Part shown: positions 3,217-33,571 of the stretch, one piece after another
Position numbering within the stretch: position 1 is the stretch's first letter
How the letters are laid out: every line of letters begins with the position of its first letter
Source of the DNA: an uncultured delta proteobacterium
GTDB taxonomy: Bacteria > Desulfobacterota > Binatia > Binatales > Binataceae
Length of the DNA: 64,000 nucleotides
Reading direction: 5' to 3'
Assembly (NCBI GenBank): GCA_963717045.1
Contig: CAVQVD010000015.1
Location: forward strand, 687,747 to 751,746
Notes under the pieces: model-generated
Told to the model about the DNA's origin: nothing
The model's input: only the letters and a program-made list of their open reading frames with translations
Database searches by the model: none
Program-made: the position numbers and the translations under genes

Positions 3217-4569
3217 ATGCATTTCATGTGGTTTACGGAACGGGCGTACCATTACGATCCTGAGGTTGATCCGGCGAAGTACCATGCGTTGGAGAATCAG
3301 ATCGTCGGACTGCGCAGCTTCTTCAACACTCCTAATCGCTTCTTCGAACGCGAGCACGGGGCGAAACTGCTCAACCAGTATCTCGACGAGAAAATCTACA
3401 CCGATTCCGAGCTCAAGAATTTCGACGGCGTGATGCTCAACGAGCATCATGGCACGCCATTTTGCCTCGGCGCGGTGATGGATGTCGAAGCTTCGATCCT
3501 GGCCAAGACCACCAAGCGGCTGAAGATGGTTCTGCTCGGCAATCCCGTCGCCACCGTCGCCAATCCGCTGCGCCTGGCGGAAGAGCTCGCCATGATTGAT
3601 CTCATCTCGGGCGGACGCCTGGTCTCCGGATGGGTGCGCGGTGCCGGTTCCGAGCAGTTCGCCAACAACACCAATCCGGCGCTTAATCGCGAACTGTTCG
3701 AGGAAGGCGTCGAGTTCATCGTCAAGGCGTGGACCACGCCCGGGCCGTTCCGCTACGAAGGCAAGCACTTCAATTTCCGCAACGTGAATCCCTGGGTGCT
3801 GCCGCTCCAGCGGCCGCATCCGCCGTTCTGGATTCCCGGCCTGGTGAGTCCCGATACCGCCTTCTGGTGCGCCCGTAAGCGCTATCCGTACGTCGCCCTC
3901 GCAACCAGGCTGCAGCCAACGATCGAGCTGTGGGACTTCTATGCCAAGGCCGCGGCTCAGGAGGGCTACCAGGCGGGGCCGGAGAATTTCGGTTACCTGC
4001 AGCCGGTGGTGGTGGCCGATACGCAGGAGCGGGCGGAAGAACTCGGCAAGCGGATTCTCTTCGGCGGCGCCTTTGCGCACTTCGCGCGGCCGGAGTGGAT
4101 GTTCCCGCCGGGATACAATTCCAAGGCCGCGACCAAGCGGCTGGCCGAAGTGAATTTCGGCGCCAACGCGGCGGCCAAGTCGCTTTATGGCGACGGCGGC
4201 AACAACGAATCCCAGGAACAGATCGAGGCCGTCAAGCAGCACATCTACAACGGCTATCCGGACGTCCTTAAAGACTACGTGATGATTGCCGGCACGCCGG
4301 ACAATGTGATTCCCAAGCTCTGCAAAGTGCTCGACGTCCTGCGGCCGGGAATCTTTTCGTTCTGGCTCGACGGACCGGTGCCCGCGAAGGACCGGATGCG
4401 ATGTCTTGAGTTGCTGAACCGCGACGTGATCCCGGCTATGCGTGACTACGGCAAGACGCTCGGACTGGTCGACCCGTTCAAACGCGCGCCCGGCTCGCGC
4501 CTCTTGCGCGCGGGGGTTACACCCGACCCAGTGAGCAATGCCGACGCGCTCGCCTCGATAGGTGCCTGA
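3217..4569 (+). CDS. LLM-class (luciferase-like) flavin-dependent oxidoreductase
   Basis: 450 aa, luciferase-like monooxygenase pattern (LNEHHGTPF, LRLAEELAMIDLISGGRL); strong GGAG RBS. Confidence 0.75.
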   Translation: MHFMWFTERAYHYDPEVDPAKYHALENQIVGLRSFFNTPNRFFEREHGAKLLNQYLDEKIYTDSELKNFDGVMLNEHHGTPFCLGAVMDVEASILAKTTKRLKMVLLGNPVATVANPLRLAEELAMIDLISGGRLVSGWVRGAGSEQFANNTNPALNRELFEEGVEFIVKAWTTPGPFRYEGKHFNFRNVNPWVLPLQRPHPPFWIPGLVSPDTAFWCARKRYPYVALATRLQPTIELWDFYAKAAAQEGYQAGPENFGYLQPVVVADTQERAEELGKRILFGGAFAHFARPEWMFPPGYNSKAATKRLAEVNFGANAAAKSLYGDGGNNESQEQIEAVKQHIYNGYPDVLKDYVMIAGTPDNVIPKLCKVLDVLRPGIFSFWLDGPVPAKDRMRCLELLNRDVIPAMRDYGKTLGLVDPFKRAPGSRLLRAGVTPDPVSNADALASIGA

Positions 4570-4587
4570 AGCGAAATTGACGCAACC

Positions 4588-4620
4588 CCTGGGCCGGACT
4601 GCCAATCCGGTCGGCCCAGG
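4588..4620 (+). terminator. GC-rich stem-loop (9-bp stem CCTGGGCCG/CGGCCCAGG) downstream of LLM gene, no U-tract
   Basis: Perfect inverted repeat seen in sequence 19 nt after stop codon; separates LLM gene from CuMMO operon. Confidence 0.35.
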
Positions 4621-4701
4621 GTTCACACCCCGCCCCCCTCCCTTAATAAGCCGCAAATCCAATCTTGCCTGAGAACTCCCGTTCCCGGAGGTCTTCGGCT
4701 G

Positions 4702-4730
4702 TTGACGGCGGCTGAAAATCGGTCTAAACG
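4702..4730 (+). promoter_or_regulatory. possible sigma70-like promoter for CuMMO operon (TTGACG-17 nt-TAAACG)
   Basis: Hexamers with 17-nt spacing about 40 nt upstream of subunit C start; weak -10, speculative. Confidence 0.2.
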
Positions 4731-4769
4731 GGCATAAGGAAAGCAAATTTCTTAGGCGAGGGTCTGCTT

Positions 4770-5606
4770 ATGAGCTCTATCGAAGAGGTGGCGGCAGGAC
4801 GTCGTCCAACCGATTGGCTGGTCGGTTGGAAAACCTTATTTGTCGGATGCGGGCTGCTGATGGCCTGCAACATTTTCCTCTGGATCTGGGACTATAAATA
4901 CGCCTTCACCGCGGGACTGGATTCCTCGAGCCGCGCCTTCGCGCTTCATTATCGCACGCTGTTCTGGGCTGAACTGCTGAGCGTTGGGGCCTTTGCAGGC
5001 GTGTGGTACGGATGGCTGGTGCGCACCGGCCGGACTCTCGTCGGCGAATCGATACCGCCCGCCGAAGAGACTCGCCGGGTCGTGGTGCTGTGGGGAATTA
5101 TCGGAGTTACCAGTCTCTCGATCTATATCGAGGCGAGCTTTTGGCCCAACTGGGACGGTGCGTGGCATCAGACGATGGTGCGCGACACCGCGCTCACTCC
5201 TACGCACATCCCGATGTTCTATTTTTTCTTTCCGATGTCGGTGGTGCTCGCTTTAGGAGCATACCTCTACGGCCGATTCAGGTTGCCGGCAGTCTACGGC
5301 GGCGAGAAGGGATTTCCATGGTCGTTCTTTCTGCTGATTGCCGCCGCCGTTCTGGAATTCGTCGAGGTCGCCTTCAACGAATGGGGTCACAGCCTCTGGA
5401 TGTCGGAGGAATTCTTCTCGGTGCCGTTCCACTGGCCATTTGTCATTTATGGATGGCTGGCGGGCGGAATGTTCGCGGTGTGGGGCGAAACCATCCTGCA
5501 TCTGTTCCAGATCGAAAAAGAGGGCGCGCGCGGTCGAAGAACTGCCGACGCATACGGCTGCCGCCGGCTAAGTGGGCCAGCGGTCCGCGGCTCTTTTCAA
5601 ACCTGA
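4770..5606 (+). CDS. pmoC: copper membrane monooxygenase subunit C (PmoC/AmoC family)
   Basis: Aligns along whole length to AmoC/PmoC: FWPNWDGAWHQTMVRDTALTPTH (Asp/His/His metal ligands), NEWGHSLWMSEEFFSVPFHWPFV. Confidence 0.9.
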   Translation: MSSIEEVAAGRRPTDWLVGWKTLFVGCGLLMACNIFLWIWDYKYAFTAGLDSSSRAFALHYRTLFWAELLSVGAFAGVWYGWLVRTGRTLVGESIPPAEETRRVVVLWGIIGVTSLSIYIEASFWPNWDGAWHQTMVRDTALTPTHIPMFYFFFPMSVVLALGAYLYGRFRLPAVYGGEKGFPWSFFLLIAAAVLEFVEVAFNEWGHSLWMSEEFFSVPFHWPFVIYGWLAGGMFAVWGETILHLFQIEKEGARGRRTADAYGCRRLSGPAVRGSFQT

Positions 5607-5656
5607 CGTCCTATTGGATCTTGCTGAGATTTTGCTGACATCTTGCGAGGAGAGGC

Positions 5657-6454
5657 ATGGCGACAGCACCATCGATAACGGCGGCCGCCGCGGCGGAAAG
5701 ACAACGCAGGCTTGCGCTGCGTGACCTGCTCAACGCGAAATATCAGTGGATCGATCGCACCTGGGACGCGGTCTTCTGGATCACGGCGATCTTTGTTGTC
5801 GCCGGAGCCGCGGATATAACGCGGCTGCTGTTCGCTGGCGACTGGGATTTCTGGACCGATTGGAAAGATCCGCAATGGTGGCCGGTGGTCACCGCCTTCG
5901 CCACCATCATCATTCCGTCCGCGCTCCAATACATTCAGTGGGCCGCATGGCGCTTTCCCACCGGTGCGACCTACACCTGCGTATGCCTCTTCATGGCTTC
6001 GTGGATCGGACGTTACTTCCAATGGCACGTTGCCGAGGGCTATCCGATGAATTTCGTATGGCCGATATCGACGATCCCGGCGGCCATAATTCTCGACTGG
6101 CTATTGATGAGAACGAAGAGCTTCGTACTGACGTCGCTTTTCGGGGGAGGGATATGGGCGGTGATGGTGTGGAGTTTCAACTACATCCCGCTCGCTCCGT
6201 TCCTCCAGCCGATGCAATTCATGCATCACATTCTTACCGTCGCGGACGTCCAGGGAATCGTTTACATCCGCACCCAGACACCCGAATACATGCGGCATAT
6301 CGAGCGCGGCGCGTTGCGCAGCTTTCTCGGTGAGACGCAGTACGTATCGCTGCTGTTTGGCGGCACGCTGGCGATGCTCGGTTATTGGATCGGCCAGTTC
6401 ATCGGGCGCTATCTCGCCGTGTGGCCGATTGGCAGATACATCAAGACCGTTTAA
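5657..6454 (+). CDS. pmoA: copper membrane monooxygenase subunit A (PmoA/AmoA family)
   Basis: LLFAGDWDFWTDWKDPQWWPVV ... YIRTQTPEYMRHIERGALRSF, near-identical to hallmark AmoA/PmoA blocks; GGAGAGG RBS. Confidence 0.9.
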   Translation: MATAPSITAAAAAERQRRLALRDLLNAKYQWIDRTWDAVFWITAIFVVAGAADITRLLFAGDWDFWTDWKDPQWWPVVTAFATIIIPSALQYIQWAAWRFPTGATYTCVCLFMASWIGRYFQWHVAEGYPMNFVWPISTIPAAIILDWLLMRTKSFVLTSLFGGGIWAVMVWSFNYIPLAPFLQPMQFMHHILTVADVQGIVYIRTQTPEYMRHIERGALRSFLGETQYVSLLFGGTLAMLGYWIGQFIGRYLAVWPIGRYIKTV

Positions 6455-6475
6455 AGCCGCTTCGGGGAAACAGCT

Positions 6476-6709
6476 ATGCGCATCGTCTTTCGCCTCTCGC
6501 GCGCCACGATGGTCGCGCTCTTATGGACCGGTATATTCGCCGCCCGCGCGTATGCTCACGGAGGAATTGCCGGACCCGACGAACTTGGGCCGCCGGTAAT
6601 CACCTCGGCCGTACTTGGCATTGGGGGCTATTGGCTAATGATGCTGTGGCCAGCGCGCAGCCGTCCTGTCGTCAACAACAGACGCAAATCGGCGCGTCAC
6701 GCGCGATGA
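6476..6709 (+). CDS. small hypothetical exported membrane protein encoded between subunits A and B (signal peptide, N-terminal His after predicted cleavage, one TM helix, basic tail)
   Basis: 77-aa ORF with GGGGAA RBS-like element; signal peptide ...ARAYA|HGG mirrors PmoB signal peptide ...PRAFA|HGE; fills otherwise 310-bp A-B gap. Confidence 0.35.
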   Translation: MRIVFRLSRATMVALLWTGIFAARAYAHGGIAGPDELGPPVITSAVLGIGGYWLMMLWPARSRPVVNNRRKSARHAR

Positions 6710-6764
6710 ACGCGATGAAATAGAAGAGTCTTCAGGCGATTTCTACGCCATTCGGGGAGGCGGA

Positions 6765-8015
6765 ATGCGAATGCGACTTCCGGTTGTTTTGTCAGCGGCT
6801 CTCTTCTTGCTGTCCGCGTCGTACGCGCCGCGCGCCTTTGCCCATGGCGAAGCGGCGGACGAGCCGTTCCTCAAGGATCTGACGGTCGCCTTCTATGACG
6901 TGCACATTTCTCCGACCGAGATCAAAGTAGGTGAGCCGGTTACGATCACCGGAGCGGTAAAAATTCTCGAGACCTGGCCCTATACGCTGGATCCGCCGCA
7001 AACCGCCTACATCACGCCGGTAGTTCCAGGACCAGTATTCGCGCTCACTGACCGCGAGGTGAATGGAGCTCAGACCCCCGGCTCAATCCTGGTCGACAAG
7101 GGGGGAATCTATCATTTCAGGATGGTGATAAAGGGCCGCCGTCCCGGAAACTGGCACGTGCATCCGGGAATCGCGATCCAGGGTACCGGAACTCTCATCG
7201 GCCCGGGCGAGTGGGTCGCGGTTGAGCCGGGCGCCGAGCCCTTCAAGATGGACGTGACGCTGCTCACCGGTCAGACCGTCAACCTCGAGCACTATGGCGG
7301 CAGCTTCGTCTGGTGGTGGTCATTCGCCGGATTCCTGATTGGCATGGTCTGGCTGCTCTATTGGACCGTGCCCAAGCGGACTGTCACCCGTCTCGCGGTG
7401 ACCACGCAAATTCCGGTCAACGACGATGCGCCTGACATCGGACTAATCACGCCGCGCGATCACATGTGGATGGACGTGCTAGCCGGCGCGATAATCGCGA
7501 TACTCGTGGTCGGCTGGATTTACATGGCGGTGAAGTTTCCCGTGCGGCTGCCGCAACAGACGGTGCGGTTTGCGCCCGAGGTCATCGACCCCAGTACTCA
7601 CTCGGCCCAGGTGATGAAGGCGGATTCGGTTTACGATGAGCAAAGCGACACCTTGGTTATAAAGGTAACGGTTAAGAACACCGGGACCACTCCGTTGAGA
7701 CTGAAGCAGTACATCATGGCGATGGCTACGTTCGTCAACGGCGACAAAGACGAACTGGCCAAGGCTGGGCCGGCGCATTACGTCGGCCGGATGCAGGTCG
7801 AGCCCGACTCTCCGATCGAGCCCGGCCAGACTGCAAACCTGCAATTGAAGATCAGCAGCCCGCTGTTCGACGAAGAACGGCTTATCCCGCTGCATGATCC
7901 GCAGGAACGAATCGCGGGGCTGTTGCGCTTTACCGATCCGAAGGGCCATGAGGATCTCGTGACCCTGAAGACCGATCTCGTGCCAACGGAGTTTCGCCCG
8001 CAATACCTGCCTTAG
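6765..8015 (+). CDS. pmoB: copper membrane monooxygenase subunit B (PmoB/AmoB family)
   Basis: Signal peptide then HGE (N-terminal His ligand), KGRRPGNWHVHPG (HxH ligands), TLLTGQTVNLEHYGG, two TM helices and C-terminal cupredoxin-like domain. Confidence 0.9.
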   Translation: MRMRLPVVLSAALFLLSASYAPRAFAHGEAADEPFLKDLTVAFYDVHISPTEIKVGEPVTITGAVKILETWPYTLDPPQTAYITPVVPGPVFALTDREVNGAQTPGSILVDKGGIYHFRMVIKGRRPGNWHVHPGIAIQGTGTLIGPGEWVAVEPGAEPFKMDVTLLTGQTVNLEHYGGSFVWWWSFAGFLIGMVWLLYWTVPKRTVTRLAVTTQIPVNDDAPDIGLITPRDHMWMDVLAGAIIAILVVGWIYMAVKFPVRLPQQTVRFAPEVIDPSTHSAQVMKADSVYDEQSDTLVIKVTVKNTGTTPLRLKQYIMAMATFVNGDKDELAKAGPAHYVGRMQVEPDSPIEPGQTANLQLKISSPLFDEERLIPLHDPQERIAGLLRFTDPKGHEDLVTLKTDLVPTEFRPQYLP

Positions 8016-8037: not shown

Positions 8038-8583
8038 GTGAAGATCAAACGACGGGAGTTCCTGCACAAGAGTGCACTTGTGGTCGCCGGCGTATCCGCG
8101 GCTGCCGCCGGTGTAGCGGTCACCGGCTTGGCCGCCGAATGGACTGCCCATCTGAAGAAATTTCGCCCGCATGAGGCCGAAGCGCTGCTCAAGATGGCGC
8201 GGCAGATATTTCCGCACGACCGTCTAGACGATAGCTACTATATAAAAGTAGTCGAAGACCTCGATGCAGAGGCGTCAAGCACGCCCGCTACCGCCCGCAT
8301 GATAAGTGCGGGAGTAGCCAATCTCGATCGTTCGGCCAAGGGCAACTTCGCCGCTCAGCCGGCTGTCGACCAGGTCGCCGCGCTCAAGAAGATTGAGGAT
8401 ACGCCATTCTTCGAAAAAGTTCGCAGCACGGAACTGGTTTCGCTCTATAACAACCAGGAAGTCTGGAAGGTTTTCGGATACCAGGGCGCCTCCTATCGCT
8501 TCGGCGGCTACCTGCATCACGGCTTCGACGATTTGAACTGGCTGCCTCAACCACCCGAAGTAGCAAGCCCGAAACCAGGCTGA
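8038..8583 (+). CDS. gluconate 2-dehydrogenase subunit 3 family protein (Tat-exported small subunit of membrane flavoprotein dehydrogenases)
   Basis: Twin-arginine signal KRREFLHKSALVVAGVSAAAAG; 181 aa; immediately precedes GMC flavoprotein. Confidence 0.65.
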   Translation: MKIKRREFLHKSALVVAGVSAAAAGVAVTGLAAEWTAHLKKFRPHEAEALLKMARQIFPHDRLDDSYYIKVVEDLDAEASSTPATARMISAGVANLDRSAKGNFAAQPAVDQVAALKKIEDTPFFEKVRSTELVSLYNNQEVWKVFGYQGASYRFGGYLHHGFDDLNWLPQPPEVASPKPG

Positions 8584-8598: not shown

Positions 8599-10167
8599 GT
8601 GGCTCGATTCGATTCGAAGGACGACTCCGTAGTCGTGATCATCGGTTCGGGGGCGGGCGGAGGTACGCTCGCCAACGAGCTCTGCCAGAAGGGCTTAAAG
8701 GTTGTGCTGCTCGAGGCGGGGCAGCGCCAGTCGCTGCAGACTTTCCACAACGATGAATGGTTCGCATTCAAACAATTGGCCTGGCTCGACAAGCGAACGA
8801 CCTCTGGCAGTTGGCGCGTAGCGAAAGACTTTCCCAATCTTCCGGCCTGGACCTGCAAGACGGTCGGCGGAACGACCGTGCACTGGGCGGGGGCCTCGTT
8901 GCGCTTTCAGGAGCACGAGTTCAAAGCCAAGACTACCTATTCTAGTGTCAGCGGTGCGAACCTTCTCGACTGGCCGATAAGTCTCGCGGAGTTGGCGCCT
9001 TACTATGCCAAGGCCGAAGACAAGATGGGGGTTACGAGGACCAACGACATTCCCGGATTGCCTGGAAATAACAATTTCAAGGTGATGTACAACGGCGCGA
9101 CGCGAGTAGGATACAAGACCGTGCATACCGGGCGCATGGCGATTAACAGCCGGCCCCGCGATCGCCGTTCGTCATGCTGGCAGATGGGATTTTGTTTTCA
9201 AGGGTGCAAGTCGGGAGCTAAATGGTCCACTCTCTATACGGAGATTTCAAAAGCCGAGGCTACCGGCAAACTCGACTTACGGCCTGGATCGCAGGCGCTG
9301 CAGATTCAGCACGACGGCAACGGCAAGGCGACCGGCGTGCTGTATGCCGACAAGGACGGCAAACATTTCGTACAGAAAGCGCGTATCGTGTGTCTGGCGT
9401 GCAATTCGATCGAGAGCGCGCGACTGCTGCTCAACTCGGCCTCGTCGAAATTCCCCCAGGGGCTGGCGAACTCATCCGGCCAGGTCGGCAGGAACTACAT
9501 GCGGCACACGAGCGGATCCGTTTACGGCATTTTCGGCAAGCCGGTGCATATGTATCGCGGTACTGTGATGGCCGGGATTATCACCGACGAAGCCGAGTTG
9601 AATACCAAGCGCGGCTTTGTCGGAGGGTTCGAGATGGAAACCATCTCGCTCGGAATGCCATTTGCGGCCGCGTTCCTGGATCCGGGAGCGTGGGGGCGCG
9701 ACTACGCGAGCGTGCTCGAACAGTTTCCCAACATGGCTGGGATGTGGATCGTCGGAGAGGACATGCCGCAGGCCACTAACGCCGTGACGCTGCATCCAAA
9801 GGAAAAAGATCAATTCGGCTTGCCGATTCCGAACGTGCACTACGACGATCATGCAAACGACGTCGCCATGCGCAACTACGCATATAAAAGAGGCGCCGCG
9901 GTGTATGATGCCGTAGGAGCACTCAAGACGATCGCGGTCCCGCCATATCCTTCGACTCATAACCTCGGCACCTGCCGCATGAGCGAACGGCCCGCCGATG
10001 GCGTTTGCAACAAGTGGGGCCAGACTCACGACGTGAAGAATCTCTTCATCTCGGACGGCAGTCAGTTCACGACCAGCGGCGGAGAAAATCCCACGCTGAC
10101 GATCGTGACCCTGGCCATCAGGCAAGCCGATCACATCGCCGCCGAGAGCACGAGGCGTAACCTCTAG
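8599..10167 (+). CDS. GMC-family FAD-dependent oxidoreductase (flavoprotein dehydrogenase large subunit)
   Basis: N-terminal VVVIIGSGAGGGTLANELCQKGLKVVLLEAG dinucleotide fold and GMC-like C-terminal block. Confidence 0.85.
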   Translation: MARFDSKDDSVVVIIGSGAGGGTLANELCQKGLKVVLLEAGQRQSLQTFHNDEWFAFKQLAWLDKRTTSGSWRVAKDFPNLPAWTCKTVGGTTVHWAGASLRFQEHEFKAKTTYSSVSGANLLDWPISLAELAPYYAKAEDKMGVTRTNDIPGLPGNNNFKVMYNGATRVGYKTVHTGRMAINSRPRDRRSSCWQMGFCFQGCKSGAKWSTLYTEISKAEATGKLDLRPGSQALQIQHDGNGKATGVLYADKDGKHFVQKARIVCLACNSIESARLLLNSASSKFPQGLANSSGQVGRNYMRHTSGSVYGIFGKPVHMYRGTVMAGIITDEAELNTKRGFVGGFEMETISLGMPFAAAFLDPGAWGRDYASVLEQFPNMAGMWIVGEDMPQATNAVTLHPKEKDQFGLPIPNVHYDDHANDVAMRNYAYKRGAAVYDAVGALKTIAVPPYPSTHNLGTCRMSERPADGVCNKWGQTHDVKNLFISDGSQFTTSGGENPTLTIVTLAIRQADHIAAESTRRNL

Positions 10168-10787
10168 TGGCGCGACTTTTTTTCGGTCGAGGTAATGGCG
10201 TATCGTCGGCCTTGCTCGTTTTGGTGGCGATGCTTGCGCTGGCGCTTCCGCTCGCCGCGCGGGCTGAACTCGGCAATTCCGGACGGCCACGCACGGCGCT
10301 CAGTCCCACCGACGGACTGCCAAAAGTAAGCCTGACAGATCAAAATGGCAGGGCGATCTCGCTTTCGTCATTGAAGGGCAAGCCCGCGCTGGTCGCGTTT
10401 ATTCACACCTCGTGCGAGGGACCCTGCGAGCTGATCACCGCACAAATGAAATCGGTGGCGCGCGACCTGGGTCCCGGGTTCAAATCGAAAGTCACGATGG
10501 TCTCGATCACGACCGAACCCAAGGAGGACGGATCGCGCGAGTTGCTTGCCTACGCCAAGGCGCAAGGTGTGGACGCCGATGGATGGGTGTTCCTGACCGG
10601 GGCGCCGGCGAAAATCCGCCGCCTGCTGGCCCTGTACGGAGTATCGGCCGAGGACGACGATTCGGCTCACGTCCTTGAGCTGTTTCTGCTCAGTGCCGAT
10701 GGTGTCGGAATGCGCCGCTACAACGGTGTTGCGACACGACCGGAAACGATCGCCGCGGATATCAAGAAAACCGCCTTGCCTCACTAG
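10167..10787 (+). CDS. SCO1/SenC family copper chaperone (thioredoxin-like)
   Basis: Signal/TM anchor, CEGPC (CxxxC) copper-binding motif and downstream conserved His; GTG start overlaps stop of GMC gene. Confidence 0.8.
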   Translation: MARLFFGRGNGVSSALLVLVAMLALALPLAARAELGNSGRPRTALSPTDGLPKVSLTDQNGRAISLSSLKGKPALVAFIHTSCEGPCELITAQMKSVARDLGPGFKSKVTMVSITTEPKEDGSRELLAYAKAQGVDADGWVFLTGAPAKIRRLLALYGVSAEDDDSAHVLELFLLSADGVGMRRYNGVATRPETIAADIKKTALPH

Positions 10788-10911: not shown

Positions 10912-11259
10912 ATGCAGTACATGCTTTTGATCTATGACGCCGAAGGGCGGCAGATGAGCCCGGAGGAACAGGGCAAGCTTTTTCAGGAATACATGGCCTT
11001 TACCCAAGGCATCGTTAAGGCGGGAAAGTTCAAGGCCGGCGACCCGCTCGAGCCGACCAGCACGGCCACCACCGTCAGGGTGCGCGACGCGAAGACGCTG
11101 ACCACCGACGGTCCGTTCGCGGAAACCAAGGAACAGCTTGGCGGTTACTATATCGTTGAGGCCGATAACCTGGACGAAGCAGTCTCTATTGCCGCGCGGA
11201 TCCCGGGAGCTCGCACCGGATCGATCGAGGTGCGGCCGATCATGAAGATGCACATGTAA
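10912..11259 (+). CDS. YciI-like (DGPF domain) protein
   Basis: MQYMLLIYDAEG...DGPFAETKEQLGGYYIVEA pattern; GGGAGG RBS; typical partner of COG4941 sigma factors. Confidence 0.7.
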   Translation: MQYMLLIYDAEGRQMSPEEQGKLFQEYMAFTQGIVKAGKFKAGDPLEPTSTATTVRVRDAKTLTTDGPFAETKEQLGGYYIVEADNLDEAVSIAARIPGARTGSIEVRPIMKMHM

Positions 11260-11303: not shown

Positions 11304-12563
11304 GTGTTAATGAGTTCATCGGCGATAGAGCGCCTCTACCACGAGGAGTTCGGGCGGATCCTCGCTACTGTGATTCGCCTGGTCGGCGACTTCGACCTGG
11401 CGGAGGAGGCAACGCAGGAGGCATTCGCCGTGGCGCTCGCGCAATGGCCGCGCGATGGCGTGCCTGCCTATCCTCGCGCCTGGGTGGTCAGCACCGCGCG
11501 TCACAAGGCGATCGATCGCTTGCGGCGCCACGGACGCTTTGCCGAGAAGCTGGACGAACTGGCCGGCGGCCTTCACACAACCTACGAGGAAAACGCGATC
11601 GCGGGAGAAGCGCAAAGCTCGGTGCCCGACGAGCGTCTGCGGCTAATCTTCACCTGCTGCCATCCGGCGCTCGCGCTCGAAGCGCAGGTAGCCCTTTCGC
11701 TTAGGACGCTGTGCGGACTCTCGACCGAGGAAATCGCACGCGCCTTCTTCGTGCCCGCCGCCACCATGGCGCAGCGGCTGGTACGGGCCAAGCGCAAGAT
11801 TCGCAAAGCCGGCATCCCCTACGAGATTCCGCGCGCTGACGTGCTGCCCGAGCGCCTCGACGCGGTGCTCGCAGTCATCTACCTGGTCTTTAACGAAGGT
11901 TACTCGGCAACGGCCGGCGAGGCGCTCGTGCGTGCGGAACTATGCCGCGAAGCGATCCGCCTCGGGCGCATCCTGTGCGAGCTTTTGCCCGGCGAGTCAC
12001 TCGGCGCGCGTGACGGGGAATCGAATGGACTGCTGGCGCTGATGATGCTGCACGACTCGCGCCGCGCGGCGCGCACCAACGCCGCCGGCGACTTGGTGCT
12101 GCTCGAAGATCAGGACCGGTCGCTGTGGAACCGCACGCAGATGGAAGAAGGCCTCGCACTGGCCGCCTTAGCGATGCGCGCGCCGGAGCACGGCCCATAC
12201 GCGTTGCAGGCCGCGATTGCCGCGGAGCACGCCAGGGCCCGGCGCTCCGCGGATACCGACTGGCGCGCGATCGCCGGGCTCTACGACGCGCTGCTTCGGG
12301 TGCGGCCGACGGCCGTGGTTGAACTGAACCGGGCGGTGGCGATCGCGATGGCGAACGGGCCGCAGGCTGGCCTCGACGCGATCGCCAGGCTGAAGGCGAA
12401 CCATGAACTGGACTCCTACTACCTACGCTGGTCCGCCGAGGCCGACCTGCTCCGCCGGTTGGGCCGCCGCGCCGAAGCAGAACAATCCTATCGCCAAGCG
12501 CTCGAACTCGTCACTTCAAACCCCGAGCGAAGGTTTCTCGAACGGCGGATTCAGGAGTTGTAG
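11304..12563 (+). CDS. ECF-type RNA polymerase sigma factor with C-terminal TPR-like extension (COG4941-type)
   Basis: Sigma-70 region 2 and 4 features (AFAVALAQW, HKAIDRLRR, LRTLCGLSTEEIARAF) plus about 200-aa C-terminal domain. Confidence 0.8.
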   Translation: MLMSSSAIERLYHEEFGRILATVIRLVGDFDLAEEATQEAFAVALAQWPRDGVPAYPRAWVVSTARHKAIDRLRRHGRFAEKLDELAGGLHTTYEENAIAGEAQSSVPDERLRLIFTCCHPALALEAQVALSLRTLCGLSTEEIARAFFVPAATMAQRLVRAKRKIRKAGIPYEIPRADVLPERLDAVLAVIYLVFNEGYSATAGEALVRAELCREAIRLGRILCELLPGESLGARDGESNGLLALMMLHDSRRAARTNAAGDLVLLEDQDRSLWNRTQMEEGLALAALAMRAPEHGPYALQAAIAAEHARARRSADTDWRAIAGLYDALLRVRPTAVVELNRAVAIAMANGPQAGLDAIARLKANHELDSYYLRWSAEADLLRRLGRRAEAEQSYRQALELVTSNPERRFLERRIQEL

Positions 12564-16842: not shown

Positions 16843-18397
16843 ATGGCTGAGGCTAGCAAACTTTCCCGCCGCTTGAGCAGCCAAGACGCCTCATTCCTAT
16901 ACAACGAGACGCCGCACGGCCCGCTTCACGTCGGTCTTCTTCAGACCTTCGAGGGCGAGATCGAGTTTGACCGGCTGATAAATCACCTCGAGCGTCGTAT
17001 CCACCTTTTGCCGCGCTACCGGCAACGCCTGGTGTTCGCACCGTTCAATCTGGCGCACGCGACCCTCGAGGACGATCCCCAGTTTGAACTGCGCAATCAC
17101 GTCAAGCGTCATTTGCTGGAGCGCGGCGCCGGGGACGCCGAACTCGGCCTCGGCGGCGATGCGGGCTAACGAACCCGCGCTCGAGCGGAGCCGGCCGTTA
17201 TGGGAGTTGCATCTATTTCGAGGGCTCGCGGACGGACGTTCGGCGCTGTTGTGGAAGATCCATCATTGTATAGTCGACGGAGTCTCGGCCTTACAACTGA
17301 TTGCGACCGCGATGGATCTGAGGCCCGATGCTCCGGCGCCCGCACCAGAGAAGGAGCCGTGGAAACCTGCGAGACTGCCCGACAGCTCAAGGTCGCTGTT
17401 GGATGCGGCGGTCGCGCTGGTCCAGAGTCGCCTCGACGAATTGCACGAGGCGGGGAAGCTGTTGAGCGCCCCGGCCGACCTGGCCGAGCGGAGCGCGGCG
17501 ATGACCAACGCCGCGGCCCAGATGTTCCAGATGATGTCGCGGCCGGTGGTCGCGGCGCCGTGGAATCTTGGATTCGTAAGCCGGAGCCGCTCGCTCGCCT
17601 GGCTCAGAGTTTCGTTCGGCGACCTGCGCGCAATTCGCAGCGCTCTGGGGGGAACCGTCAACGACGTCGTTCTGAGTATTCTGAGCGAGGGCGCGGCGCG
17701 GTACCTGAAAGATCACGAAGTCGCGACCGAGGGGCTGCCGCTACGAATCGGATGCCCGGTCAACGTGCGGCGCGAGAGCGAAGCCGGCGCGATGGGTAAT
17801 CGGGTTTCGATGATGTTTCCCGAATTGGCCGCGACGCCGATGGACCCGATCGAACGCTATCGCTCTGTGGTCCGCGAGACTGAGCGGATAAAGGCGGCGC
17901 GCGAACCGCAGGGGATGGACTTGCTAACGGCGGCTGCCGACTCAGTTGCGCCGAGCCTGCAGGACCTGAGCTCAAAGATGACCAACGCCGCGATCGAGGC
18001 CGCGACTCGGCTTTCCGAGTTCAGCGGAGGGATCGCCCGAATGATCGCAAGGCCTGCGATAGGAATCAACTTCATCGCGACCAACGTACCGGGGGCGCAG
18101 GTTCCGCTGTACCTGGCGGGGCGGCGGATGCTCGAGTTCATCGGCCTGGTGCCATTGGCGGGCAGCTTCGGTTATGGCGTGGCGATTCTGAGTTACAATA
18201 AGAGCTTGTTTTTCGCGATGGCGGCGGAGCCCCGTTTGATGCCCGACGTGGAATTGATGAAGTCGCGTATCGCCGACGCCTTCGCGGATCTCAAGGCCGC
18301 GGCACAAAGCGTGATGCCCGAGCAAGAGCGATCGATTCGCGCAGCCGGGAACGCGCCGAAGCGCGATTCGGCGATGGCCCGATTAACTGAAGCGTAA
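16843..18397 (+). CDS. wax ester synthase/diacylglycerol acyltransferase (WS/DGAT) family; reading frame broken by apparent 1-nt indel near 17150-17170 (two ORF fragments 16843-17169 and 17084-18397)
   Basis: N-terminal fragment LSSQDASFLYNETPHGPLHVG and C-terminal fragment with catalytic HHCIVDG motif lie in adjacent frames and together give a full-length WS/DGAT. Confidence 0.65.
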
Positions 18398-18510: not shown

Positions 18511-19026
18511 GTGTCAGGAGAAAGAGCAATGGGACAACCACAGAAAGAGGGTGATATACCGACGTTGTACAAGGCCTTGGGGGCAGAAGTGCAGGAGCTT
18601 CTGCGTAAAGCTACGGCGGCGGGAGGGGAGCGCGGTGAAGTCGAAGCCGCGGCCTGGAAAGCTTATGACGCGTGGGTGCGCGCGACACACGCCTCGATCG
18701 AGAAAGTGGTAGCGATGCCCGCGCTCGGCGATGCCGCCGCGATGGTTCTGAATACTTTTTTGCGCGCGGCGCAGGTAGGCAACTCCGTGGTGGGCTCGCT
18801 GTTCGCGCCGGTGTGGCCCTTGGTCGGGTTGACGCCGCTTACCGAGACCCAGGCGCTGTTCGATAGAATCGAAAGTTTGCGGCGCGAGGTGCGGCAACTT
18901 ACCGCGCCAAGAACGTACAAGCCGGTCGAGCCGGTCGAGCACTCCCGCGCCACTGCGTCTCGCGGCCGGCGCGGGCAAAACGGCAGTCAAACCAGCGAAA
19001 AGAAATCGGCTTCCATCAGCCAATAA
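18511..19026 (+). CDS. putative PHA synthase subunit PhaE-like / phasin-like protein
   Basis: 171-aa Ala-rich helical protein directly upstream of class III phaC; assignment by context only. Confidence 0.35.
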   Translation: MSGERAMGQPQKEGDIPTLYKALGAEVQELLRKATAAGGERGEVEAAAWKAYDAWVRATHASIEKVVAMPALGDAAAMVLNTFLRAAQVGNSVVGSLFAPVWPLVGLTPLTETQALFDRIESLRREVRQLTAPRTYKPVEPVEHSRATASRGRRGQNGSQTSEKKSASISQ

Positions 19027-19071: not shown

Positions 19072-20142
19072 ATGTCACTTCTCACTGAACTCCCGATGTA
19101 TTGGATGGACGGCGCCGTGCGCGCACTCGACGGCAACCGTCGTGGATTGAGCGACCATTATCCGCTGAGCGAGGATCCGCCGGGGGTGACCCCGTATGAG
19201 ATTGTTCACGAGGGCGGAAAGGTCAGGCTGCGGCACTACGCCGCGCGCGGCAATGCCCATCGCACGCCACTGGTCTTCGTTTACGCACTAATCAAGCGTC
19301 CTTTCATACTGGATATGTTTCCAGGCCGCAGTGTGATGGCGAACCTGACCCGTCAGGGATTCGATGTTTACATGGTGGAATGGATTCCACCCGCGCGGGC
19401 TGACAGCTGGCGAGGATTCGACGCCTACGTGAACCAGGATCTCGGCGATACCATGCGCGCCGTTCAGCGCCTTACCGGCGAACCGAAAGTCAACCTGCTG
19501 GGCTATTGCTTCGGCGGTCTGCTGACAACCCTGTACGCGGCGCTCCATCCCGGAGATATCAAGAACCTGATCACTCTCACGACGCCCTTCGATACCGCGG
19601 TCGATGACAATCCGCTGTTCAATCTCGAGAGCAGATTCAGCGGCCAGACTGTCGACCTGATAACCTCGGTTTACGGCAACTGCCCGGCCTGGTTCATCAG
19701 AGGGCTGTTCACGGCGACCGCCGTCGTTCATCACGCAGTCGACAAGTACGTCGCGCTTTACCGAAACAAGGAGAAGGAGGACTACGCTGAATTCTTCGAC
19801 TTGTTCGAGCGCTGGATGTCCGGGGACGTGCCATTGGCCGGGCGCATATTCCGCGAGGTGACGCGCGATTTTTTCCAGAACAATCTGCTCAAGAAGGGCG
19901 AGTTCAAGGTCGGCGGCGAGCGCGTGGACTTGACCAACATCATCTGTCCGCTGCTCAATGCGATCGGCGAGTTCGATGACGTCGTGTACCCGGCCTCGAG
20001 CCTCCCGCTAATCGATTTCGTCGGAAGCGAGGACAAGCTCAACCTGACGTTCGCGGCGGGACACGTCGGGATGATCGTGAGCAGCGCGGCGCACAAGAAG
20101 TTTTGGCCGCAGGTCGGCGCGTGGCTCACCGAGCGCGACTGA
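19072..20142 (+). CDS. phaC: class III poly(3-hydroxyalkanoate) synthase subunit PhaC
   Basis: 356 aa; lipase-box GYCFGG; alpha/beta hydrolase pattern of 40-kDa PhaC. Confidence 0.85.
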   Translation: MSLLTELPMYWMDGAVRALDGNRRGLSDHYPLSEDPPGVTPYEIVHEGGKVRLRHYAARGNAHRTPLVFVYALIKRPFILDMFPGRSVMANLTRQGFDVYMVEWIPPARADSWRGFDAYVNQDLGDTMRAVQRLTGEPKVNLLGYCFGGLLTTLYAALHPGDIKNLITLTTPFDTAVDDNPLFNLESRFSGQTVDLITSVYGNCPAWFIRGLFTATAVVHHAVDKYVALYRNKEKEDYAEFFDLFERWMSGDVPLAGRIFREVTRDFFQNNLLKKGEFKVGGERVDLTNIICPLLNAIGEFDDVVYPASSLPLIDFVGSEDKLNLTFAAGHVGMIVSSAAHKKFWPQVGAWLTERD

Positions 20143-27045: not shown

Positions 27046-28527
27046 TTGGCTGGATCGGATGAGAAGCAACCGTCGGGCCTCTCGCGCCCAGAATTCGTCG
27101 AGCGCCATGGCCTTTGGACGCTAGCGCAAAAAGAGCGTGTTCAGGGGGTTCGCGACACGATCGAGCGTCACCGGATAACCTCGGTGCGGGTCGTATTCGC
27201 CGACCAGCACGGAATCGCGCGCGGCAAAACGCTGACTGCGCGAAACTTTCTGGCCGCCCTCGAACGTGGCCACGCCGTGGTAAGCACGCTGTTCGCGTTC
27301 GATACCTCAAATCATGTCGCCTTCCCGGTTTTCACCGGCCAGGGCGGTCTGCCGCTCGCTGGGGCCGGCGGTTCCGGCGACCTTCTGATGGTTCCTGACC
27401 CGGAGACCTTTCGCGTGCTGCCATGGGTTCCCGCCACGGCCTGGGTGTTGTGCGACCTGTACCTGCCGGACGGCGCGCCGGTGCCTATCGCGCCCCGTTA
27501 CATCTATCGGCGGGCGCTCGAAGAGCTGAAGCGCAAGGGCTACGGATCGATGGTGGGTCTCGAAGTCGAGTTCTATGTGATGAAGCTCGAGGACGCCTGT
27601 CTGCGTCCCGAGCAGTCCGGACAGCCGCCGGATCCGCCGCAGGTCAATTTGCTGTCTCACGGCTTCCAGCATCTGGCCGAGCAGAAGATCGACGAGATGC
27701 AGCCGATACTCGAAACCTTGCGCGAAAATCTGGAGGCGCTTGGTCTTCCGATTCGCAGTCTCGAGACCGAATGGGGCCCGAGCCAATGTGAAGTCACTTT
27801 CGAGCCCGAAACGGGGCTACGACCCGCCGATGACATGCTCCTGTTCAGGAGCGCGGTGAAGCAGATCTGTCGGCGCCACGGATACCATGCGACATTCATG
27901 TGCTGGCCGGCGCTGCAGAACGTCTATGCGAGCGGCTGGCATCTGCATCAATCGCTGTACTCGCTGGCGACCGGCGAAAACGCGTTTGTGGCGCCCGACT
28001 CCTCGCAACTGCTATCGGCTACCGGCCGCGATTTCGTCGGTGGACTGCTGCATCATGCGGCAGCAAGTTGCGTCTTCAGTAACCCGACGATCAACGGCTA
28101 CAAGCGGCTGCGTCCCAACTCTCTCGCGCCACATCGGGCCAACTGGGCCACGGAGAATCGAGGCGCGATGATTCGCGTAATCGGCAGTCCGACGGACCCT
28201 GGCACGCATCTTGAGAACAGGATTGGAGAACCTGCCGCCAATCCATACCTGTACCTGGCGGCAAACCTGATCGCGGGTATGGATGGGGTCGAGAAGCGGA
28301 TCGATCCGGGCCCTCCGACCAGCGATCCCTATGCCGACGCCGACCGCGCGGTACTGCCGCGGTCGCTGATGGATGCGGTGGGCGCGCTCAAACATAGTGC
28401 GCTGTTTCGGGAGAAGATGGGCAACGATTTCATCGACTACCTGGTAGCGCTGAAGGAATTCGAGATTTCGCGTTTCCTTTCGTTCGTTACCGACTGGGAG
28501 CACCGCGAGTACTTCGAGATGTTTTGA
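27046..28527 (+). CDS. glutamine synthetase-like gamma-glutamyl-amine ligase family protein (GmaS/PuuA/AtdA1/IpuC-type)
   Basis: GS catalytic domain blocks (GLEVEFYV, EYGPSQCE, NGYKRLRP); paralog of 57883-59322. Confidence 0.8.
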   Translation: MAGSDEKQPSGLSRPEFVERHGLWTLAQKERVQGVRDTIERHRITSVRVVFADQHGIARGKTLTARNFLAALERGHAVVSTLFAFDTSNHVAFPVFTGQGGLPLAGAGGSGDLLMVPDPETFRVLPWVPATAWVLCDLYLPDGAPVPIAPRYIYRRALEELKRKGYGSMVGLEVEFYVMKLEDACLRPEQSGQPPDPPQVNLLSHGFQHLAEQKIDEMQPILETLRENLEALGLPIRSLETEWGPSQCEVTFEPETGLRPADDMLLFRSAVKQICRRHGYHATFMCWPALQNVYASGWHLHQSLYSLATGENAFVAPDSSQLLSATGRDFVGGLLHHAAASCVFSNPTINGYKRLRPNSLAPHRANWATENRGAMIRVIGSPTDPGTHLENRIGEPAANPYLYLAANLIAGMDGVEKRIDPGPPTSDPYADADRAVLPRSLMDAVGALKHSALFREKMGNDFIDYLVALKEFEISRFLSFVTDWEHREYFEMF

Positions 28528-28679
28528 AGGCCGTCGGCTGTGCCGTTAATAACTGGATCCGCAGGCGGCTGTAGCGATCTCTGTTCGGCGGGTGGTGTCG
28601 ATGCTATATGGAATTCGCCTGGTCGTTTTCGAATCGGTGGAAAAGTGGATTTCCGCAGAGGGTAAGGAGGCTGCGTTAA

Positions 28680-30314
28680 ATGGGCGAGCGTGGAGCACCG
28701 GTCTCACTAGCAGTCGCATCTATCGCGATTTCGTTCTTGAGCGTGATTTCATTTTTAAGTTTGACGGGCGTGGCGGAAGCGCAGCAGAAGAACAACAACA
28801 CGCTGCTGGTATGCACGGCGTGTCATATACCCAAGGACGGCAAGCTGGATTCGATCGAATCGGTGCGGATGACACCCGAGGGCTGGCGGATGACGCTCAG
28901 CCGAATGATTCGCAATCACGGTCTGCAGCTCAAAGAGGACGAGGCTCACAATATTCTCAAGTACCTCAGCGACAATTACGGTTTGGCGCCCTCCGAGATC
29001 GCTCCGTACGAATATGCGCTTGAACAGCGCAACAGCACCTTGCAGGACTTCGATCGGGCGGGTTTGCCGCCCAACGTGATGGGCGCTTGCGTGCAGTGTC
29101 ATTCGTTCGCGCGGATCGCCCTGCAGCGGCGGACGCCGGAGATGTGGAAGCGGCTGCCCGACCTGCATGAGTACTTCGTGCCGTTCGTGGCTTCCGACAC
29201 GTCCTCGGCGGGCAATCTTATCGACCCGTGGCGCAAGGTGGCGACCGGAGAGGCGGTGCCATACTTAGCCAAGCGCTTCCCGTTCGAGGCGCCTGCGTGG
29301 AAGGAATGGCAGGCGGCAGCGAGGCCGGATTATTCGGGGAAATGGATGGTGGTGGGGCACGACCCGGCCAAGGGCGGCGACTATACCGGAGTGCTCACGG
29401 TGACCTCGTCGGGTGACGATCAGTATCGCGGCAAGTTCACCCATGAGTTCGAGGATGGCTCCTCGGTGACGGGCAGCACGGAGGCGGTGCTGTACGCGAA
29501 GTTCGAGTGGCGCGGGCGGGCCAAGGTGGGGGACCGGCAGGAAGCAGAGATTTTCTTCGGGAACGAGAACGGCACCCGGATGCACGGGCGGCGCCTGCTG
29601 ACGCCGGTGGGCGATCTTGGGATGGACGAGACCCTGTACAAGGCTGGGAGCGCAGCCACGCTGCTGACCGCCATCCCCAAGTCGATCCAAGCCGGACAGA
29701 CGGTCAAGGTGCGGCTGTTCGGGATGCATCTGCCCGCCAGCGTGAGCGCGGACGCGATTAGCTTTGGCGATGGCCTAAGGGTGAAATCGGTCAGCCAGTC
29801 CGATGACAACACGGTGGTCGCCGAGGTGGAGGCCGACGCCAACGCCAAGCCAGGACCGCGCAGTGCGAAGATCGCAGGAGTCGAGGGCGAGCAGCCGATT
29901 TACCTGTACAAAACCGTGGATTACATCAGCATTACGCCCGAACGGGGCTATGGGCGGCCGGGCGGGACGCGTGGCCCCAAGGTCAACCAGCAATTCGAGG
30001 CGAGCGCGTTCACCCATGGGCCGGATGGCAAGCCGGTCAACATCGGGCGGGTCGGCCCGCTGACCTGGGACGTGGCGGAGCGGGTGAGCAGAATCGGCGA
30101 CGACGACGTGCTGTACGTCGGGAAGGTCAATCCATACGGAACATTTATTGCCGCCTCCGACGGACCTAACCCGGAGCGCGAGCATAGCGAATCCAACGTG
30201 GGCGACGTGTGGGTCGAAGCATGGTACAAGCCCGACCCGTCGAAGCCGCCGATGGGCGCGCGGGCCTTCATGCTGTTGATGCCGCCGAAGTTCGTGTTCA
30301 ATCCAATAAATTGA
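28680..30314 (+). CDS. qhpA: quinohemoprotein amine dehydrogenase alpha subunit (dihaem cytochrome c)
   Basis: Signal peptide, two CxxCH haem motifs (CTACH, CVQCH) in N-terminal domain, about 540 aa. Confidence 0.8.
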   Translation: MGERGAPVSLAVASIAISFLSVISFLSLTGVAEAQQKNNNTLLVCTACHIPKDGKLDSIESVRMTPEGWRMTLSRMIRNHGLQLKEDEAHNILKYLSDNYGLAPSEIAPYEYALEQRNSTLQDFDRAGLPPNVMGACVQCHSFARIALQRRTPEMWKRLPDLHEYFVPFVASDTSSAGNLIDPWRKVATGEAVPYLAKRFPFEAPAWKEWQAAARPDYSGKWMVVGHDPAKGGDYTGVLTVTSSGDDQYRGKFTHEFEDGSSVTGSTEAVLYAKFEWRGRAKVGDRQEAEIFFGNENGTRMHGRRLLTPVGDLGMDETLYKAGSAATLLTAIPKSIQAGQTVKVRLFGMHLPASVSADAISFGDGLRVKSVSQSDDNTVVAEVEADANAKPGPRSAKIAGVEGEQPIYLYKTVDYISITPERGYGRPGGTRGPKVNQQFEASAFTHGPDGKPVNIGRVGPLTWDVAERVSRIGDDDVLYVGKVNPYGTFIAASDGPNPEREHSESNVGDVWVEAWYKPDPSKPPMGARAFMLLMPPKFVFNPIN

Positions 30315-30330
30315 TACGCTGTTTTTTGAG

Positions 30331-31821: not shown

Positions 31822-31892
31822 TCGGGAACTGAGTTGCTGCCACCGGGCGCAGAATCCCGCGCCGTGCTCTGGACCCGTAACAGGAGGAGAAC

Positions 31893-32210: not shown

Positions 32211-32365
32211 AGACGAACGCCTCGGCCGCCGCTGGCCGAGCAACTACATTGGCTTGTCGAGGGGCGTCGGCCTTGCATGCAAGGTGCGCGAGCCAGTCGC
32301 TTCGTCGCGGCCGCGCGCTCAAAGGGTGATCAGGTAGGCTGCAAGGCGAGTCGCAAAGGATTGTC

Positions 32366-33517: not shown

Positions 33518-33571
33518 TAAGTCAGGTTTGCGAGCGGATATCTGTTAACCGCATCCGCGAAAATTTAACTG

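Follow-up and report, generated by a model that had tools for sequence, protein, structure and literature searches.

A copper membrane monooxygenase locus in an uncultured Binataceae bacterium: a probable seven-gene operon allied to the hydrocarbon monooxygenases

Copper membrane monooxygenases (CuMMOs) control the first step in the oxidation of methane, ammonia and gaseous alkanes. In the Binatota, they have been described in the gene order CAB or CAxB, and most of them group with actinobacterial bmoA-like and SAR324 sequences; that study did not decide whether the substrate is methane or a gaseous alkane (Murphy et al. 2021, mBio, PMC8262859). A Microflora Danica (MFD) preprint of 2026 (bioRxiv 10.64898/2026.02.02.703227) counted 81 metagenome-assembled genomes (MAGs) with a 'Putative pmoA Binatales', which it placed among the hydrocarbon monooxygenases (HMO) and not with verified pmoA. 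Published work on the clade reports no methanotrophy modules. A 2025 paper lists Desulfobacterota_B among the HMO-encoding phyla, and reports that the characterised HMO relatives oxidise C2-C4 hydrocarbons (PMC12533140). Here, we analyse a CuMMO locus in a stretch of 64,000 nt, hereafter the window, from an uncultured delta proteobacterium of the GTDB family Binataceae (assembly GCA_963717045.1, contig CAVQVD010000015.1, positions 687,747-751,746 of the forward strand). The window belongs to the published HMO-like clade of Binatota and is not a new kind of enzyme. We read the locus, with somewhat better than even confidence, as a seven-gene operon, pmoC-pmoA-orfX-pmoB followed by genes for a small subunit with a twin-arginine translocation (Tat) signal, an FAD dehydrogenase and Sco1, which would encode a CuMMO of the HMO-like radiation with a C2-C4 alkane or alkene as its most likely substrate.

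The CuMMO gene cluster is genuine and intact. A preliminary description of this DNA had aligned three open reading frames (ORFs) end to end with the AmoC, AmoA and AmoB families, and they do cover the corresponding Pfam profiles almost completely (Table 1). The copper ligands it listed, Asp/His/His in PmoC and the N-terminal His plus HxH in PmoB, are all seen in our alignments, together with the Asn/His/His set of CuD. When aligned to solved chains of particulate methane monooxygenase (pMMO), PmoB H27, H131 and H133 correspond to the CuB ligands H33/H137/H139 of M. capsulatus, and H27 is the first residue past the predicted signal cleavage site, between AFA and HGE. PmoB has a signal peptide, two transmembrane helices and a C-terminal cupredoxin-like domain; its alignment with M. 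capsulatus PmoB spans the full length (3rgb_A, 3.6e-67), while the B subunits of ammonia monooxygenase (AMO) score ~1e-40. In PmoC, the CuC ligands are D129/H133/H146 and those of CuD N203/H207/H221, all six invariant in an alignment with the C subunits of Binatia, Caldinitratiruptor, Carbonactinospora, Hmo and Pxm. The best solved relative of PmoC is that of Methylocystis (4phz_K, 2e-39), with AMO at ~1e-33. Judged by its aligned subunits and ligands, the enzyme is a member of the CuMMO superfamily.

One irregularity concerns the end of pmoC. Compared with a near-identical contig (L081; relatives' loci are numbered with the prefix L), the A run at 5515-5519 is longer by one nucleotide, so that PmoC has 278 aa instead of 266 aa and its last residues are altered. 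If this frameshift were real, the operon might be decaying or inactive. We consider this highly improbable: only the cytoplasmic tail past the last transmembrane helix is changed, the ligands are untouched, and the other genes are all open and under purifying selection. Moreover, homopolymer length errors are typical of long-read assemblies. The extra A is probably such a homopolymer or assembly error, and once it is discounted the true stop of pmoC is likely at 5569-5571.

The operon extends beyond these three genes. The preliminary description spoke of a complete operon at 4770-8015; the C, A and B genes are indeed complete, but orfX was overlooked and the operon runs to 10787. Past pmoB, a gap of 22 nt precedes the gene of the Tat protein and one of 15 nt the gene of the GMC-family dehydrogenase, the stop of which overlaps the start of sco1 by 1 nt. 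The GMC and sco1 genes, noted before as part of the flank, are present but with such spacing are members of the operon. We rejected a genomic island or other foreign origin, since the GC content of the operon (0.59-0.60) matches that of the window. An Rfam scan of the whole window found no RNA family, and a scan for sigma70 promoters gave nothing above chance. A sigma54-like element (GGCAT-N5-AAGCA) is found 40 nt before the pmoC start, within 4680-4769. We dropped its assignment as a promoter because it is kept only in near-identical relatives and the window has no sigma54 activator. Such an activator adjoins the operon in the type II loci of other Binatia, described below.

We scanned for relatives using one genome per species. 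This returned 362 relatives and gave 80 Binatia loci. Among the best 80, nearly every record bears the name Candidatus Binataceae, Candidatus Binatia or 'uncultured delta proteobacterium', and long-read MAGs from Microflora Danica are numerous. The PmoA of the top nine is 95-99% identical to that of the window; for contigs of Candidatus Binataceae and MFD MAGs the figure is 97-99%, and an identical protein occurs on eight public contigs. The best matches are Binataceae and not JACPRU01, the genus of TUSC (tropical upland soil cluster 2). These protein matches place the source, an uncultured soil bacterium, in the Binataceae (class Binatia, phylum Binatota or Desulfobacterota_B). Neither substrate nor lineage had been thought readable from the sequence; the lineage is, and it is one of the candidates named at the time, while the substrate is still a matter of inference.

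The three subunits give the same rank order of relatives: other Binatia (60-86% identity) come before Caldinitratiruptor, Carbonactinospora and Dormibacterota (40-70%), then actinobacterial Hmo (33-47%), and finally Pxm (29-36%), Pmo and Amo, which together span 29-39%. The references, taken from annotated plasmids and the protein database, were hmoCAB of Mycolicibacterium chubuense NBB4, a Rhodococcus operon, pxmABC of Methylomagnum, and the operons of Carbonactinospora, Caldinitratiruptor and a Dormibacterota MAG. For the A subunit, identity is 43-46% to HmoA of NBB4 and Rhodococcus, 36-39% to Pxm, Pmo and Amo taken together, and 37-39% to the PmoA and AmoA of solved structures (37-38% for verified PmoA, 39% for AmoA). 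We built a neighbour-joining tree of PmoA from a core of 233 columns. The Binatia form a clade (bootstrap 83) nested in a large radiation together with Dormibacterota, Caldinitratiruptor and Carbonactinospora. The sister group of this radiation is HmoA of NBB4 and Rhodococcus, and Pmo, Pxm and Amo branch elsewhere. Against the equivalog cut-offs of the NCBIfam AmoA/B/C_BACT families, subunit A scores 210 versus 290, B 290 versus 336 and C 173 versus 319; against TIGR03078/80/79, the scores are 144/192/211 versus cut-offs of 281/318/395. Scores below the TIGR cut-offs and a PmoA outside the Pmo/Pxm clade are not those of a canonical pMMO. Neither is this a bacterial AMO, given the equivalog scores, the identity to AmoA and a window without hao. 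The position as sister to HmoA places the enzyme in the HMO group in the broad sense, for a small reference set and neighbour-joining only. Identities, cut-off scores and tree agree with the preliminary description, which saw here a non-canonical CuMMO nearer to Hmo/Bmo and MAG-only clades than to pMMO or AMO; nesting within a Pmo or Amo clade, which would have made it an ordinary operon, is seen neither in the PmoA tree nor in the identity ranks of C and B.

The 310-nt 'gap' between pmoA and pmoB holds orfX, which gives the order C-A-X-B. Its 77-aa product is predicted to begin with a signal peptide (ending A-Y-A), so that the mature protein would start H-G-G; a single transmembrane helix and a basic C-terminal tail follow. 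In 66 of the loci examined, pmoA and pmoB are separated by an in-frame ORF built in the same way: its signal peptide ends A-x-A and is followed by H-G, (G/A)-P-P, one hydrophobic helix showing C/G-Y-W...L-W-P, and a basic tail. Pairwise comparisons of 22 orthologues gave 2933/2096/6023 differences at codon positions 1/2/3, and 3490 synonymous codon changes in the orfX frame versus 557 and 771 in the other two. Because of this bias, we conclude that orfX is protein-coding and under purifying selection. An alignment of 20 sequences, drawn from three phyla, has just three invariant positions (the start Met, Ala27 and His28) and two nearly invariant ones (Gly29 and Glu36). A search of 1.84 billion representative proteins retrieved 75 clusters, all of small proteins, and there was no match in Pfam, NCBIfam or PDB, including a profile search against PDB chains. 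In Caldinitratiruptor, the protein has 87 aa, is encoded between A and B, and its signal peptide ends in LALA, directly before HGG. In NBB4, Rhodococcus WAY2 and Carbonactinospora, it has 71-93 aa, is encoded right after B and lacks a signal peptide; it reads M-x5-L-A-H-G-G, followed by a helix and a basic tail. When we searched the literature for a fourth Hmo gene under a name of its own ('hmoD'), we obtained unrelated medical papers only.

There is a functional precedent for orfX. In solved pMMO and AMO structures, an additional 'exogenous' helix runs along subunit C, and tiny ORFs have only recently been identified as its source; archaeal AMO has three small extra subunits, and the same review notes that HMO is still active after mutation of CuB (PMC13058606). 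By analogy, it is plausible that OrfX is a supernumerary single-helix subunit with its conserved histidine facing the periplasm.

The second addition to the core is the dehydrogenase and Sco1 module. The best solved relatives of the GMC large subunit are the fructose dehydrogenase of Gluconobacter (7w2j_A, 2.3e-47) and the FAD-dependent glucose dehydrogenase (FAD-GDH) of Burkholderia (6a2u_B, 1.3e-43). It carries a cysteine cluster, C193-x5-C199-x3-C203, the spacing of which we take to match the 3Fe-4S ligands of FAD-GDH. Across Binatia this protein is 73-93% identical, as conserved as PmoA. The orthologues of the 181-aa Tat protein match the gluconate 2-dehydrogenase subunit 3 family in 9 of 36 cases (best 8e-6) and the small subunit of FAD-sorbitol dehydrogenase in 6 of 36. 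Together, the Tat and GMC proteins probably make up one flavoprotein dehydrogenase, as its small and large subunit respectively, which would be exported to the periplasm by the Tat route.

We counted linkage to CuMMO genes in those 54 Binatia loci that have flanks of 6 kb or more in either direction. The Tat and GMC pair is linked in 34 of them, Sco1 in 33, a small cytochrome c in 26, a periplasmic protein starting A-x-A and then H-R-x-x-G-P-N-D in 35, multicopper oxidases in 18 and a zinc alcohol dehydrogenase (Zn-ADH) in 15. The cytochrome is a monohaem protein of 158 aa, and its gene precedes that of the small subunit in these 26 loci. Five architectures can be distinguished. The first, CAXB-tat-GMC-Sco1, is that of the window and L001-L009. 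Type II loci, the second, insert Zn-ADH and cytochrome c after pmoB (CAXB-ZnADH-cyt c-tat-GMC-Sco1). In the third (L022-type loci) the module comes first, as cyt c-tat-GMC-[N-terminal domain::Sco1]-CAXB, with the fused Sco1 directly upstream of pmoC. The fourth has the order N-His protein-CAXB-N-His protein-multicopper oxidases, and the fifth ZnADH...Sco1-CAXB-amidohydrolase-DUF59. The features conserved in the x gene, the flavoprotein module and the five architectures are possibly new, as we did not find them in the open-access full texts of PMC8262859 and 10.64898/2026.02.02.703227. In any case, our analysis possibly goes beyond published work at these points only, the small gene shared across phyla and the conserved module of dehydrogenase and Sco1.

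Two further families appear in these architectures. The periplasmic family has ~190 aa (L061 8442-9026 and 12375-12965; N-terminal half of L022 7831-9048) and a mature start H-R-x-x-G-P-N-D-x-C-x-R-x-I-G. It flanks pmoCAXB in the 35 loci counted above; one architecture has it joined to Sco1, and the window lacks it. The family matches nothing in Pfam or NCBIfam, and a role in copper handling is possible. In the sub-clade of Binatia that lacks the GMC module, pmoB is followed by a pair of multicopper oxidase genes (L061 12967-15546; homologues in L047-L079).

Substrate hints come from the relatives. In Carbonactinospora, Caldinitratiruptor and Dormibacterota, the CuMMO genes directly follow genes for an amidohydrolase, a DUF59 (FeS_assembly_P) protein and a Zn-ADH, and two of these three sister-lineage operons have MimR-like sigma54 activators. 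Together with GroEL, this set accompanies the propane and acetone monooxygenases of actinobacteria, and on a Rhodococcus aetherivorans plasmid (L093) it adjoins an ORF resembling the alpha subunit of a soluble di-iron monooxygenase. It looks as if a copper enzyme has replaced the di-iron enzyme in the same cluster of the sister lineages. The amidohydrolase-DUF59-Zn-ADH set is also present in two Binatia loci, L070 and L080. This pattern supports a metabolism of the gaseous alkane or ketone type for the radiation, without proving it for the window. We rank short-chain hydrocarbons first, as the probable substrates of the window's enzyme, ahead of other hydrophobic compounds, then methane, and last ammonia or amines.

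The dehydrogenase leaves some room for the second of these. The enzyme might act on a different small hydrophobic molecule, for instance an alkene, a volatile of the terpene kind, or a compound that is cyclic or oxygenated, and its product would be a secondary alcohol or polyol suiting a dehydrogenase of the fructose-dehydrogenase type. The module is conserved like PmoA and often linked, its solved relatives act on sugars and polyols, and type II loci also have a cytoplasmic Zn-ADH, so that the flavoprotein may not be a simple alcohol dehydrogenase. But we found no positive evidence for any particular alternative, the sister lineages carry the accessory set of propane and acetone oxidation, and the characterised relatives act on C2-C4 hydrocarbons. 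We hold such a substrate to be a possibility of the minor kind.

Several other points weigh against a short-chain hydrocarbon monooxygenase coupled to this dehydrogenase. We know of no cultured Binatia and, to our knowledge, no member of the Binatia clade or of the sister radiation at 60-70% identity has been assayed; the assayed Hmo enzymes are at 33-47%. The known substrates of fructose-dehydrogenase-type enzymes are sugars and polyols rather than simple alcohols. For the window's own Tat protein, the assignment as small subunit is weak at the level of the single sequence. The cytochrome c gene that accompanies the dehydrogenase in 26 of the 34 linked loci is absent from the operon and, by tblastn, from the whole window. 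The PmoA tree is small, lacking references for Nocardioides CF8, SAR324, TUSC, Emo and archaea, and the deep nodes inside the radiation are weak (bootstraps 2-25), but it agrees with published trees. Finally, the negative result for methanol dehydrogenase and hao, given below, covers 64 kb of the genome, and a methanol dehydrogenase homologue occurs in five of nine such Binatota genomes (Murphy et al., PMC8262859).

This last point also speaks for a pMMO acting on methane, possibly atmospheric, in a non-proteobacterial methanotroph. Murphy et al. keep methane possible, the copper ligands are the same as in pMMO, and PmoB scores better against solved pMMO than against AMO. Yet PmoA is far from verified PmoA and outside the Pmo/Pxm clade, the subunits score far under the TIGR equivalog cut-offs, and the published placement of the 'Putative pmoA Binatales' is with hydrocarbon monooxygenases. 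In related TUSC-encoding Binatia MAGs, the modules for methanol oxidation and assimilation are incomplete or missing (10.64898/2026.02.02.703227). As announced in the preliminary description, nothing nearby indicates methanotrophy or nitrification: no methanol dehydrogenase dependent on pyrroloquinoline quinone, hao or recognisable pmoD was found among the ORFs scanned in the 64-kb window, and no C1-assimilation genes were found there either. Methane is in our view an unlikely substrate, and a short-chain hydrocarbon remains the preferred one.

The wider neighbourhood (Table 1) contains all the genes listed in the preliminary description: LLM, GMC, Sco1, ECF sigma, WS/DGAT, polyhydroxyalkanoate synthase and amine oxidation. 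For most of those outside the operon, the use as pointers to the substrate did not hold. The LLM, CoA-transferase, ECF sigma, WS/DGAT and PhaC genes are shared only with the closest relatives or with none, and say little about it. Nor did we accept as clues the upstream genes (M1 peptidase, cupin, CoA-transferase, LLM) or the downstream YCII/ECF sigma pair, all of which are limited to the closest relatives, L001-L009. The YCII and ECF sigma genes look like an ECF42-type pair, and one is also found just after the Dormibacterota CuMMO operon (L092 11137-12700). Its presence beside both operons may be a coincidence; among Binatia it is limited to the closest relatives.

The amine genes suggested the most specific link, an ammonia or alkylamine monooxygenase tied to amine catabolism. 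A quinohemoprotein amine dehydrogenase cluster that looks complete occupies 28680-34357, with a gamma-glutamyl-amine synthetase-like gene before it (region 27046-34357) and a second gene of the latter kind elsewhere in the window, and CuMMOs generally co-oxidise ammonia (PMC8262859). But these genes are more than 18 kb off, with unrelated genes in between, and amine genes are in the conserved neighbourhood of none of the 80 Binatia loci. Together with the absence of hao from the window, an identity to AmoA of 39% and scores far under the bacterial Amo equivalog cut-offs, this makes an amine-related function very unlikely, and we rejected the alkylamine idea because it has no conserved linkage to the operon. 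We note two other features of the window: a putative RND efflux system (45081-52530) has one membrane-fusion gene followed by two tandem genes for AcrB-family pumps of 1038 aa, and the ORFs 18511-19026 (+), 42949-43527 (-) and 43592-44623 (-) have coding-like GC3 but no Pfam or NCBIfam match.

Table 1. Coordinates of the CuMMO operon, of its neighbours in the window and of selected genes in related loci (each in the numbering of its own locus).
Locus	Feature	Coordinates	Strand	Remarks
Window	Upstream leader of pmoC, intergenic	4570..4769	+	GC-rich hairpin ~4587-4622 after the LLM stop
Window	pmoC/hmoC-like subunit C	4770..5606	+	Pfam AmoC 1.4e-44, profile 14-235/245
Window	pmoA/hmoA-like subunit A	5657..6454	+	Pfam AMO 1.9e-59, profile 10-232/238
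Window	orfX, small membrane protein, 77 aa	6476..6709	+	Called as a gene on independent contigs
Window	pmoB/hmoB-like subunit B	6765..8015	+	Pfam Monooxygenase_B 8.1e-84, profile 1-379/380
Window	Tat-signal (KRREFL) protein, 181 aa, probable 'hitch-hiker' small subunit	8038..8583	+	Weak family matches
Window	GMC-family FAD dehydrogenase large subunit, 522 aa	8599..10167	+	Pfam GMC_oxred_N + GMC_oxred_C
Window	Sco1/SenC copper chaperone or thiol-disulfide protein	10167..10787	+	CEGPC motif; Pfam SCO1-SenC 5.9e-18
Window	LLM flavin monooxygenase	3217-4569		
Window	YCII/DGPF-like protein	10912-11259		
Window	ECF sigma factor	11304-12563		DUF6596 and TPR tail
Window	WS/DGAT	17084-18397		
Window	Class-III PhaC-like gene	19072-20142		
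Window	Quinohemoprotein amine dehydrogenase alpha	28680-30314		
Window	Radical-SAM maturase	30331-31821		
Window	Quinohemoprotein amine dehydrogenase gamma	31893-32210		
Window	Beta-propeller	32366-33517		
Window	Subtilisin-like protease	33572-34357		
Window	Second gamma-glutamyl-amine synthetase-like gene	57883-59322	-	
L090	Amidohydrolase-DUF59-Zn-ADH set	4184-6914		
L091	Amidohydrolase-DUF59-Zn-ADH set	4140-6949		
L092	Amidohydrolase-DUF59-Zn-ADH set	4202-7011		
L091	orfX homologue	8782-9045		
L087	orfX homologue	10110-10325		
L088	orfX homologue	10087-10368		
L090	orfX homologue	10145-10372		

A possible mechanism can be outlined from these genes. The C, A and B subunits would assemble into the usual membrane complex, with copper in the histidine brace of PmoB and in the CuC and CuD sites of PmoC. 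With O2 and two electrons, the enzyme would hydroxylate a small hydrophobic molecule, for which an alkane or alkene of the C2-C4 range is the most likely candidate. OrfX would be a single-helix fourth subunit that holds its periplasmic N-terminal histidine at the membrane surface, and Sco1 would deliver or maintain copper. The Tat-exported FAD/iron-sulfur dehydrogenase might oxidise the alcohol product, or a later intermediate, in the periplasm, and its electrons would return to the respiratory chain and possibly, by that route, to the monooxygenase. As a tentative generalisation, one that we think may well turn out to be wrong, CuMMOs of the HMO type would be four-subunit enzymes. OrfX would then be a subunit or assembly factor with a copper-binding N-terminal histidine, the counterpart of the 'exogenous helix', and the Binataceae enzyme would be hard-wired to an electron-recycling FAD/iron-sulfur dehydrogenase.

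The pmoA-like genes of soil surveys are easily misread as markers of methanotrophs. The assignment of the Binatia genes as HMO-like guards against this, and in doing so repeats published conclusions. An orfX homologue accompanies the one HMO that has been expressed recombinantly; for NBB4 hmoCAB, the host was Mycolicibacterium smegmatis. The presence of orfX, the putative periplasmic flavoprotein dehydrogenase and Sco1 suggests C, A, X, B and Sco1 as a set for co-expression and the dehydrogenase as the partner enzyme to test, and these genes may bear on the extra helix in pMMO and AMO structures and on the physiological electron donor.

How does the locus compare with known systems? The structures of pMMO and AMO (3rgb, 4phz, 6cxh, 9cl6, 9leg, 9pxf) share its fold families and copper ligands, but these enzymes form separate clades, and the window, unlike their genomic settings, has no pmoD/amoD, methanol dehydrogenase or hao nearby. 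The dehydrogenase resembles the membrane-bound flavoprotein-cytochrome c dehydrogenases, such as the fructose dehydrogenase FdhSCL of Gluconobacter, the FAD-glucose dehydrogenase of Burkholderia, and the sorbitol and gluconate dehydrogenases: the large subunit is similar over its full length, and the gene of the probable Tat small subunit lies directly upstream. It differs from flavoprotein dehydrogenases of known type in that the window has no cytochrome c and the module lies inside a monooxygenase operon; in related Binatia loci, a small monohaem cytochrome c replaces the trihaem membrane subunit of fructose-dehydrogenase-type complexes.

The nearest relatives outside the Binatia are the CuMMOs of Caldinitratiruptor microaerophilus, Carbonactinospora thermoautotrophica and Dormibacterota MAGs. 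Caldinitratiruptor, like the window, has an x gene with a signal peptide between A and B, whereas the operons of all three have MimR-like or IclR regulators and lack the flavoprotein dehydrogenase and Sco1. The HmoCAB operons of NBB4 and Rhodococcus have the C-A-B order, identical CuB, CuC and CuD ligands and a sister position in the PmoA tree. They also include a small ORF with L-A-H-G-G, one helix and a basic tail, and an alcohol-oxidising enzyme is encoded nearby. In contrast to the window, their identity is low, the small ORF comes after hmoB and has no signal peptide, and the actinobacterial loci have no Sco1. Their alcohol enzyme is a cytoplasmic methanol dehydrogenase (mdo) dependent on N,N-dimethyl-4-nitrosoaniline (NDMA), while that of the window would be a periplasmic flavoprotein. 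The closest match is the 'Putative pmoA Binatales' or 'Actinobacteria/SAR324-type' clade, which comprises the same organisms; several of the MAGs we matched have MFD isolate names like those of the preprint. With the Binatota clade of PMC8262859, the window shares the C-A-x-B order with its hypothetical gene x, the PmoB histidines and a substrate still left open, and nothing essential differs between the two.

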